Shown in pieces: positions 55,376 to 64,000 of a stretch of 64,000 nt of DNA (within the stretch, counting starts at the first letter, position 1; each line of letters opens with the position of its first letter). This stretch comes from a virus: positions 1-64,000 of IMG/VR virus record IMGVR_UViG_3300042691_037350. One strand, given 5' to 3'. Under the pieces are notes generated by a model. It saw nothing but the letters and a program-made list of their open reading frames with translations. It was not told the DNA's origin and made no database searches. Made by a program: the position numbers and the translations under genes.

Positions 55376-58300
55376 ATGTCTAGAGGATTTAATTTAACGG
55401 CTGAAATCAATCTCCGTGGACCCTCCAATATTCGCACCGTAGTTGCCGATATTCGCCGTCAATTAGGTACTGTAACTGCCGATGTTAATGTTAGAGTTAA
55501 TCCCACGGCCATAAGAAATATTTCAGCTCTGAATCAGGCATTAGGTAGACTTAATACTACTTTAGCAGATACTAATCGATTAGGACTACAAGCAACTAAT
55601 ACATTAAATTCTTTAGCTAATGCTGGTCGTCAGGCCACAAATAGTATTGCTAATTTGCCAAGAAATATTCAAAACGCATCAACTGCTGTAAATAGATTAA
55701 GTAATACAACTAACCAAGCTGCTAGAAACTTACAAGTAGCTAGAACCGAGTTTGAAGAATTTGGAAGACAGTCTGCTTTGGCTATTAGAAGATTTGCTGC
55801 GTTCGCCACAGTAACAGGAGCTATTTTTAAAGTTACCAACGCGATCAGCTCTGCTTCGGCCGAATTTATAGCATTTAATAAAGAACTAGTAAGAGTGGCT
55901 CAGGTTACCGACACGTCCGTATCTAATCTAGGGGGTTTAGTTAAAGAAATTACATCTTTATCTACCAGATTTGGCGTAACGTCTAAAGAATTAATTCAGG
56001 TATCTAGTACATTAGCTCAGGCCGGTTTGAGTGCTAGAGACACAGAAAAAGCTCTTAAGGCTTTGGCTCTTAGTGCTATGGCACCTTCTTTTGATAGTTT
56101 GAATGATACGGTAGAAGGCAGTATTGCTTTAATGAGACAGTTTAATATTGGTGCAAAAGATTTGGAAAAAGCATTAGGCTCTGTTAACGCTGTTTCTGCT
56201 AAATTCGCCGTAGAAGCGAGCGATATTATTACTGCTATACAGCGAACCGGTGGTGTGTTTGCTGCTGCTAGTAGAGGTGTAAGCGAAGGCACAGATGCTC
56301 TTAATCAATTTATAGCTGTATTTACCAGTGTGCGTGCTACTACTCGTGAAAGCGCAGAAACTATTGCTACCGGTTTAAGAACTATTTTTACTCGCGTTCA
56401 AAGAGCAAGCACTATTGATGCATTAAAAGAATACGGGGTAGTTCTTACAGATTTAGAAGGTAAATTCGTTGGACCATACGAAGCTGTTAGAAAATTAGCA
56501 GAAGGTTTGAATCAATTAGATCCAAGAGATTTAAGATTCTCAAGAATCGTTGAAGAGTTGGGTGGCTTTAGACAAATTGGTAAGGTTATTCCGCTTATTC
56601 AACAGTTTGCTACGGCACAACAAGCACTCATAGTAGCTCAAAAAGGACAAGGGTCTTTAGCTAACGATGCTGCCACAGCACAACAAGCGCTCGCGGTAAA
56701 AATTTCTAAAGTTAGAGAAGAATTTATAGCATTAATTAGAAGTGTTGGACAAAGCGATAGTTTTCAAAACTTTGTTAAATTAAGTTTAGATTTAGCTAGC
56801 GCTCTCATTAAGGTGGCAGATTCTGCGAAGGGTGTTTTACCAGCATTAACAGCTATTGCGGCTATTAGAGGTGCTAGTTTCTTAACTCAATTTGCTACGG
56901 GTTTTGCTGGTGGGCTTAGACGTAGAAATAGCGGTGGTCCTATTATGGGTTTTGCTAAGGGTGGTTTAGTACCTGGCTCTGGCAATAGTGATACCGTACC
57001 GGCGATGTTAACTCCTGGCGAGTTTGTTATTCGTAAAAAAGCTGTCGAAAGTTTAGGAGTATCTCGTTTATCTAATATTAATAAATATGCTAATGGGGGT
57101 CCGGCCAAATCTCCAACTAAAACATTAGAAAAATATTATACAGATTCATCTAAAATTAATTTAGGATTAGCTAATAGTAAATCTTTATCTAAAGAAGACA
57201 GAAAATCTTTAGCATCAGATGTTAAGAATCTACGCCAGCTTAGAGCGCAGGCACCAACACAGGTTTATAGTGCTATCAGCAGTGTGGCTTTTGATAGTAT
57301 GGCAAGACAAACTGGTTTTAATAAAAAAGCAGCAGAAGGAGCAGGTCCTCTCAAAGAAGATAGGGTTTTTGCGGCAGAAACTCAAAAAATTATCGGTAAA
57401 GCATTTAAACTACCAGGCTTTTTATCTACTAGCAAAGAATATTCTGTAGCAAAAATGTTTCTAGATAATGCTCCGAGAACAGATAATTTTGGAGCTATGC
57501 TAAACATTAAAACAAAACAGGGCGCCAAAGGCATAGATACTGTTAGTTCTTTGGGTGGAAAACAAATAGATGTATCTAAGACAGAAATAGATCCTAGATC
57601 TGGTAAACCAACCACATATAAAATGAATCAACCAGATGCTGAAAAAGAAGTTATATTACAGCCACGATCACGTTTTAAGATTGATAAGGCTTCATTTTCT
57701 GGGTTTTTAGGGGGTAATAAAAATTTATGGATGGATGTGCAACAGTTTAATGAGGGTGGTTTAATTGAAGATATTCGTGGAGGATTAAGACAGGTCGGGG
57801 CTGCTGTATTAGAACCAAACAGCAAAAGACCAAAATCAGACGTTTTATTTAGTGTTACAGAAAATAAAATCAAAAATGCTTTGGGTCTAGATAAACAAGA
57901 GTCTATAAAAAATTTGGGTTTTAGTAATAGACTCGATATGACGGGCATAGTATCTGGATTAACTACCCCAACATCAGATACTTTTAATGCCGCTCTCGAT
58001 AATGGTATTGTACAAGGCATCAACTCGGCTGCCGCTCAAATATCAGAAAAGCTTCAAGTTAGCATAGGTTCTATAGATGACTCTACTAAAAATGCATTTT
58101 TATCTGGAATTAATACTGGCACTAGAGGAAATTTATTCGAAGATATCCTAACATTAATGAGCGGTAAATTCGAAAGAATTTCTGGTAGAAATTTCGATTT
58201 TCCAAATGGTATGCCATCAATTAAAGAAGGTGATTTCGCTGGTTTACCAAAGAAGTGGATTGACGCTAAAGCATCTTTTGGTAGAGCAACTAGAAGCGGC

Positions 58301-64000: not shown

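Follow-up and report, generated by a model that had tools for sequence, protein, structure and literature searches.

This study concerns a 64,000-nucleotide stretch of viral DNA (hereafter the window), which comprises bases 1-64000 of a 122,474-base virus contig (IMG/VR record IMGVR_UViG_3300042691_037350), and, within it, an open reading frame (ORF) for a tape measure protein (TMP) of 3,436 amino acids (aa) on the plus strand (55376-65686). Our analysis points to a large, uncultured, freshwater siphophage-like virus, whose TMP combines a five-fold repeated module with two additional domains (cassettes A and B) that are set at portable glycine-rich joints and are probably carried in the virion. 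Cassette A belongs to the ADP-ribosyltransferase (ART) family PF03496, an assignment established by sequence comparison, while cassette B is a globular domain of unmatched fold with an E..D..DxK set of residues; both would have been inserted, in this order, between the first two copies of the module.

[quoted passage not shown] In addition, two PHROG families that are both annotated as TMP (phrog_28 and phrog_4211) together cover aa 47-555. The 10.3 kb frame is open at the window end and reaches its stop codon in the source contig.

Five modules and two cassettes in one protein

The DTVPA(M/L)LTPGEFV core of the module occurs five times in the protein, starting at aa 539, 1077, 2155, 3102 and 3257. 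The three copies counted in the original prediction are those of the window; the full ORF holds two more, copies 4 and 5, beyond the window end (contig positions 64679 and 65144). The positions given at that time were exact, both for the Asp codons of the three cores (56990, 58604 and 61838) and for the short glycine motifs (FAKGG at 56951, YANGG at 57086, FNEGG at 57746, MATGG at 58574, FNKGG at 58718, FARGG at 58754, SKGG at 61784 and 61931, and YLEDGG at 61952). The plan of the module is [FY]AxGG, followed by DTVPAMLTPGEFV, a short helix, an ..L..IN segment and a second [FY]AxGG. Its 13-residue core is identical in four of the five copies, with one residue different in the fifth, and two module subtypes can be told apart (copies 1-2 vs copies 3-5). 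Between copies, the peptide agrees at 12-13 of 13 positions, whereas third codon positions agree at only 3-8 of 13. Since the peptide is kept while the third codon positions are scrambled, the copies appear to be old and held by selection on the peptide, rather than being recent duplications or an assembly artefact.

The joints, [FYM]xxGG, number 11 in the TMP (mean 1.96 and maximum 8 in 2000 shuffles), and every one of the 11 is part of a module, adjoins one or marks the border of cassette A with cassette B, plain GG being only mildly enriched (35 vs 26 expected). Their density in the TMP (3.2 per 1000 aa) is the highest of the 19 large ORFs of the genome, the other 18 showing values of 0-1.5. 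They also display a 9-residue period, GGxVxx[FY]Ax, which across the giant relatives reads GGx(V/I)xx(F/Y)Ax.

As judged by sequence comparison, the module is a common C-terminal element of ordinary TMPs, in which it normally occurs once, ~100-190 residues from the C-terminus. Its successive elements ([FY]AxGG, ..PA.L..GEFV.., ..L..(I/M)N and [FY]AxGG) are those of the module of phage lambda gpH (FATGG..GEFVFTKEATSRIGVGNLYRL..YATGG, residues 733-785), with which it is homologous, and a hidden Markov model (HMM) built from the family matches gpH residues 754-774 (E 3.5e-7), inside these flanks. A tblastn search of a phage collection with module 3 matched 46 records with hosts in several phyla; among the 46 places listed, 41 lie under an annotated TMP, four in unannotated records and one in a hypothetical protein. 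The TMP of Shewanella phage S0112 (934 aa) has one copy, 72 residues from its end, and in a T4-like cyanophage the module was found in a baseplate-hub-adjacent protein. The annotated TMP of a cultured cyanophage, Nodularia phage vB_NpeS-2AV2 (6046-16260), is 3,404 aa long and carries two adjacent modules (aa 1008-1040 and 1079-1109); phmmer detected neither the ART nor cassette B in it. No match for module 3 was found among PDB sequences (phmmer). The TMP described here departs from the single-copy arrangement of the gpH-type module, as only its last copy, which ends 146 aa from the C-terminus, has a C-terminal position and four further copies are internal.

The backbone of the protein is built of roughly 1,000-residue segments punctuated by modules. 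Recognisable cargo is limited to the interval between modules 1 and 2, so far as family searches can tell, the other intervals giving no match to any Pfam or PHROG family. The earlier picture of effector cassettes placed between repeated linkers is thus borne out for this one interval and was overstated for the rest of the protein. The same applies to the two enzyme-like domains, an ART and a nuclease, that had been proposed for it; the ART is confirmed, while the nuclease received no family or fold match.

When scanned alone, aa 576-794 match PF03496 (R-S-E class) over profile positions 22-192 of 196 (E 1.5e-8; 34.7 bits vs the gathering score of 23.4); a scan of the full-length protein (3,436 aa) did not report this match. 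In a language-model search the look-alikes scored 0.97, and the ten best named clusters were all from PF03496 or its clan. The STS and ExE motifs expected of this class are present, being invariant in all nine rows of an alignment of relatives (A2) and kept in a 17-row alignment, where the truncated protein P0023 lacks the ExE part. NCBIfam returned nothing meaningful. No PDB sequence matched aa 570-1075 (phmmer), and a single-sequence AlphaFold2 (AF2) model of the same segment, with a predicted local distance difference test (pLDDT) score of 36.5, was unusable. Profile matches to the PDB obtained with alignments A1 and A2 were rejected as coiled-coil noise (HA2, E 0.001, running through GxxxGFxxGG plus a heptad stretch, and aldehyde dehydrogenase, E 1).

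Cassette B was modelled by AF2 with a 15-row alignment. The model has a mean pLDDT of 80.6, reaching ~90 over the first 205 residues. All 15 rows have E922, D941 and D963-A-K965 without variation. These residues are also kept in a 35-row alignment, from which an unrelated repeat protein (P0052) and an 81-aa fragment (P0043) had been left out, and they conform to the E / D / (D/E)xK signature of PD-(D/E)xK nucleases. This identity is a motif-level lead only, as cassette B has no Pfam, PHROG or NCBIfam match, none of the 15 alignment members matches a nuclease family of Pfam, and the ESM Atlas gave no usable match. A VIA-align comparison with 48,161 representative chains likewise produced no match (best Z 4.3). 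The start of the cassette, right after the joint (57761-57830, aa 796-818), contains a conserved (L/I)(I/V)ED.. followed by (V/A)GAA(I/V)L(E/D/Q), a stretch that is common to most relatives.

Giant relatives and the shuffling of cassettes

With aa 570-1075 as the query, a full HMMER search of 1.84 billion representatives retrieved 51 proteins, most of them 2,000-5,800 aa long; cassette A was found in 16 and cassette B in 36 of them (phmmer). Family statistics refer to 35 of the 51 (at least 1,500 aa, with P0052 left out). All 35 carry at least two modules and 31 at least three (range 2-8, median 4). In 33 of these relatives the first module is situated at aa 465-603, in 27 the last one ends 101-214 aa from the C-terminus, and [FYM]xxGG occurs 388 times across the set (69 expected). 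Alignment A2, used as a query, found seven loci on contigs of 49-231 kb; single cassettes as queries found no relatives in viral contigs. No close relative of the giant TMP was detected in a search of cultured phages, where only the TMP core matched, to SPbeta-like phages, with ~23-26% identity.

Comparison of the 35 proteins supports the original suggestion that the glycine joints are domain-shuffling junctions, and cassettes have been gained, lost and reordered with their borders at these joints. If [FYM]xxGG is taken as the dividing point, the length of the ART cassette from joint to joint is 218-223 aa in 13 of 14 proteins, and the ART homology ends at QQ[FY]xxGG in 15 of 16 complete copies, including that of the present phage. 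The sequence that follows the ART is a module in seven relatives and unrelated sequence in eight, cassette B being found there only in the present phage. In six relatives, cassette-B-like segments (grouped by single linkage at a reciprocal coverage of at least 70%) stand upstream of the ART, which is the reverse of the order observed here. P0006, the closest relative, shares the five-module backbone but lacks the ART, with 73% identity over aa 1-594 and 51% over cassette B; the gap extends from just after the GG of the first module to the start of cassette B, which corresponds to the FNEGG joint here.

Delivery, rival explanations and known systems

A TMP fills the lumen of the tail and leaves the tail ahead of the DNA, as in phages lambda and T5. 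Being parts of such a protein, the two cassettes would travel in the virion and may reach the envelope or the cytoplasm of the host at infection as ready-made enzymes; an NAD-dependent enzyme would be expected to act in the cytoplasm. The joints would then serve mainly as flexible links, portable in evolution, that allow each cassette to unfold and refold on its own, and cutting at the joints would be possible, but not needed.

Several points weigh against this reading. In cassette A, Ser636 replaces the Arg of the LYSSISR motif, which is present in 16 of 16 relatives, and its codon is untouched by any of the 40 strain differences listed out of 46 (four public runs). The ART of the giant TMP may be weak, inactive or atypical. 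In an hhalign comparison of the family with T4 ModB, LYRGIS of ModB falls on LYSSIS (a weak alignment, E 0.062, 18 columns); R73 of ModB is presumably the catalytic Arg, and this alignment would mean that the canonical Tyr-Arg position may be Ser in the whole family. For cassette B, Foldseek comparison of the model with the PDB (best E 0.36) and BFVD (best E 0.30) gave no match, which leaves the nuclease fold anticipated for it unsupported. The distribution of homology breakpoints is also less clear-cut than that of the cassette borders. Among all local alignments, homology ends within five residues of a joint in 160 of 1533 cases (10.4% vs 4.2% at random) and starts there in 113 of 1703 (6.6% vs 4.2%), a weak, 1.6- to 2.5-fold enrichment. 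With so low a share at the joints, the majority of breakpoints must lie elsewhere, and the repetitive backbone holds many of these; the swaps at GG for which an alignment of related TMPs had been proposed as a test are seen at cassette borders and only weakly among homology breakpoints at large. Since the family was retrieved through the cassettes, the frequency of cargo in giant TMPs cannot be read from it. The flanking tail ORFs have no PHROG or Pfam match, and tail type and gene order are therefore only inferred. Finally, the delivery and activity of the cassettes and cutting at the joints are hypothesised.

A true polyprotein, with proteolysis specified by every xxxGG joint or module, either during tail maturation or after ejection, and the ART and cassette B thereby set free, appears unlikely to us, even though it has precedents. 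Lambda gpH and T5 pb2 each undergo a cut in tail maturation, after which neither fragment leaves the particle (PMC12617516; PMC10038345), the only module of lambda lies just downstream of the cutting region, and the T5 cut, between FVPR and AEGG, is three residues before a GG. The joints are, moreover, strongly conserved and specific to the TMP within this genome, as their densities indicate. On the other hand, the reports consulted contain no TMP cut mapped after a GG, the lambda site and its catalyst being unmapped; the module HMM has no match in T5 pb2; and gp96 of Thermus phage P23-45, the one studied case of a cytoplasmic enzyme fused to a TMP, is full-size in virions. No peptidase domain was found by Pfam in the TMP, whether scanned whole or in 15 pieces, and the 9-residue periodicity of the joints is more suggestive of a structural repeat than of one scissile site. 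Out of 98 ORFs with at least 70 aa, 84 besides the TMP were scanned, and the only peptidase in this set is an S8 subtilase (4599-5801, minus strand; Peptidase_S8, E 6e-35), and Pfam revealed no double-glycine (C39) or clan CE peptidase in them. A more specific proposal, that each of the five modules directs a cut beside itself, as happens next to the single copy of lambda, to yield five or six ordered products, seems to us rather improbable. If it were true, the products would be ruler pieces, a free ADP-ribosyltransferase and a free new-fold enzyme, all ejected ahead of the DNA; the TMPs of the giant family would be true polyproteins and a general, swappable protein-injection cartridge, and the arrangement would provide a pointer to the place and manner of the lambda gpH cut.

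The modules and joints may instead be assembly elements (oligomerisation staples, docking sites for tube, hub or chaperone, or hinges in a ruler of unusual length), with the cassettes serving envelope penetration or tail assembly and not host takeover, a possibility that we consider quite doubtful. It would agree with the universal presence of the module in ordinary cargo-free TMPs and with the fact that, of the five intervals after a module, four are backbone in which no domain was recognised. The module-containing C-terminal fragment of lambda gpH remains attached to gpI at the tail tip, and many TMPs carry wall-degrading domains (PMC12617516). However, the cassettes are dispensable in close relatives and their order varies, which fits accessory cargo better than assembly parts. 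Furthermore, an ADP-ribosyltransferase needs NAD+, a cytoplasmic cofactor, and we know of no role for such an enzyme in wall penetration. An artefact of assembly or annotation (a contig that is chimeric, or separate genes that have been fused) has nothing to speak for it beyond the unusual length of the ORF, and we regard it as extremely improbable. Public metagenome runs of 15 studies (dated 2017-2025 and mostly labelled freshwater) have contigs with near-identical DNA for the region 56900-58700, with the identical stretch in one piece in contigs of independent studies and no indels in the four public runs compared. A variant strain (one run, depth 157) differs at 43 of 1801 bases (2.4%) and keeps the frame. 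Of the 40 strain differences listed, 33 are synonymous (nine synonymous and three not in the ART, 21 and four in cassette B), and this mostly synonymous change indicates that both cassettes are under purifying selection. The architecture is, in addition, common to thirty-five relatives. Overall, the TMP gene is real and not an artefact of assembly, and the phage that carries it is widespread, with near-identical DNA across the 15 studies.

The favoured explanation, a TMP with cassettes at portable joints carried in the virion, has to be seen against what is already known, namely enzyme-bearing TMPs (wall hydrolases and the P23-45 polymerase), virion-borne ARTs and polyvalent multi-enzyme proteins. 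Lambda gpH is cut in a glycine-rich region near residue 690 to give gpH* and gpHC; the exact site is unmapped and the catalyst of the cleavage is not known, and gpHC is bound to gpI via residues 818-849, with the module-bearing part unresolved in the structure (Sci Adv 2025, PMC12617516). It shares with the present TMP the module itself (FATGG..(P)AGIVHRGEFVFTKEATSRIGVGNLYRL..YATGG at 733-785), located ~70 residues from the C-terminus vs 146 here; the cut is near the module, and both parts remain in the tail. Unlike the present TMP, with its five copies, four of them internal, gpH (853 aa) has one copy, is described with no enzyme cargo and is cut upstream of the module. In P23-45, the 5,002-aa TMP gp96 is joined in one protein to a virion RNA polymerase that is active (Nat Commun 2024, PMC10770324). 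It is likewise a giant TMP, bearing an enzyme that acts in the cytoplasm and presumably enters the host via the tail. In contrast to the present case, its cargo is a single N-terminal RNA polymerase and the protein is uncut in virions; the available text of that report (PMC10770324) mentions neither a repeated module nor shuffled cassettes nor an ART. In T5 pb2, a cut after R1127 gives pb2* and pb2C, the latter 92 residues long and bearing a motif of muralytic peptidases (Sci Adv 2023, PMC10038345). Here, too, an enzyme part is parted from the ruler by a cut, at a site that contains a GG, but the cargo targets the cell wall, the cut is single and the DTVPA..GEFV module was not detected by HMM.

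Polyvalent proteins unite multiple domains in one large chain, and through them ARTs, nucleases and other enzymes enter the cell together with the DNA; their domains are shuffled (Iyer et al. 2017, PMC5512222). They resemble the giant TMPs as multi-enzyme delivery chains with extensive domain shuffling, ARTs included. They differ in being packaged in the head or transferred by conjugation, typically with a self-processing metallopeptidase (MPTase), and TMPs have no occurrence in the available text of that study (PMC5512222). Of the several effector domains expected of a polyvalent protein, the present TMP has one confirmed enzyme family and one unmatched domain, their delivery being predicted, and the Pfam scans of the whole TMP and its 15 pieces mentioned above detected no peptidase domain that could stand for the MPTase.

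T4 Alt is a virion-borne ART. In actinophages, MuF-VIP2 ART fusions are predicted to be part of the virion (PMC7302621), and the Sle1 effectors of Streptomyces contractile injection systems are related to TMPs (PMC13277306). All three are particle-borne ARTs or TMP-like carriers with exchangeable functional domains. They are distinguished from the present TMP by their carrier (MuF or the head for MuF-VIP2 and T4 Alt, and a contractile injection system rather than a phage tail for Sle1), and none has a repeated gpH-type module in the sources cited. In the full-text literature searched, no published description of an ART inside a TMP or of a repeated gpH-type module was found among the matches listed. 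Giant TMPs with exchangeable cassettes between gpH-type modules would make the tail lumen a general store of host-modifying proteins, including ADP-ribosyltransferases and a conserved fold-unmatched domain, which would be at hand, ready-made, before any phage gene expression. What the module does in lambda, where it lies beside the unmapped gpH cut, has been obscure for decades, and the giant TMPs would offer a function-linked approach to it; the joints would be natural borders for engineering cargo into phage tails.

Genome context

The features of the TMP gene are collected in Table 1.

Table 1. Features of the giant TMP gene, in window coordinates unless given as contig positions.
Feature	Coordinates	Strand	Matches and remarks
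Tape measure protein ORF, 3,436 aa	55376..64000 in window, on to contig 65686	+	Open frame; no indels in contigs of four public runs
TMP core PhageMin_Tail, aa 191-384	55946..56527	+	PF10145, E 1.3e-22; phrog_28 aa 49-512
Module 1, aa 526-575: FAKGG..DTVPAMLTPGEFV..INKYANGG	56951..57100	+	
ADP-ribosyltransferase cassette (cassette A), aa 576-795, ends QQFNEGG	57101..57760	+	PF03496; 16 relatives
Ser636, codon AGT	57281..57283	+	Arg of LYSSISR in 16/16 relatives
STS motif of ART, aa 684-686	57425..57433	+	Invariant in alignments
ExE motif of ART, E756-K-E758	57641..57649	+	Invariant E181 and E183 (alignment A2 numbering)
Cassette B, aa 796-1066, globular	57761..58573	+	Fold unmatched; invariant E922, D941, D963-A-K965
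Module 2, aa 1067-1131: MATGG..DTVPALLTPGEFV..FNKGG..FARGG	58574..58768	+	
Backbone segment, aa 1132-2136	58769..61783	+	Glycine-rich hydrophobic stretch ~aa 1300-1370; no recognised domain
Module 3, aa 2137-2198: SKGG..DTVPAMLTPGEFV..SKGG..YLEDGG	61784..61969	+	phrog_25241 (TMP), profile positions 692-730 of 810
Backbone segment 3, aa 2199 onward to module 4	61970..64000	+	No recognised domain
Module 4	Contig 64613-64810, outside window	+	
Module 5	Contig 65078-65290, outside window	+	C-terminal 131 aa after it

The ORFs that flank the TMP gene upstream (51793-55291) and downstream (65714-85193) have sizes compatible with a siphophage tail module. The length of a TMP sets the length of the tail, at ~0.15 nm per residue, and 3,436 aa would correspond to a tail of ~500 nm.

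A second giant ORF (3,363 aa; 32759-42850, plus strand) is located among fibre-like genes; it has no Pfam match and a weak one to the tail-fibre family phrog_8443 (E 3.5e-5). The fibre-like genes at 18476-19462, 19488-21554, 26370-27326 and 45692-48280 (all on the plus strand) contain Mtd_N (major tropism determinant N-terminal) domains and collagen repeats. Outside the window, on the minus strand of the contig (94915-99279), DNA polymerase III alpha is split into two ORFs, one with the PHP and NTPase parts (97408-99279) and the other with the finger, HhH and OB parts (94915-96540), and a gene for an RNase_T-type exonuclease (96533-97228) sits between these halves. The same region also contains RecA, PhoH, a class II RNR (ribonucleotide reductase) and many sugar-modifying and methyltransferase genes.

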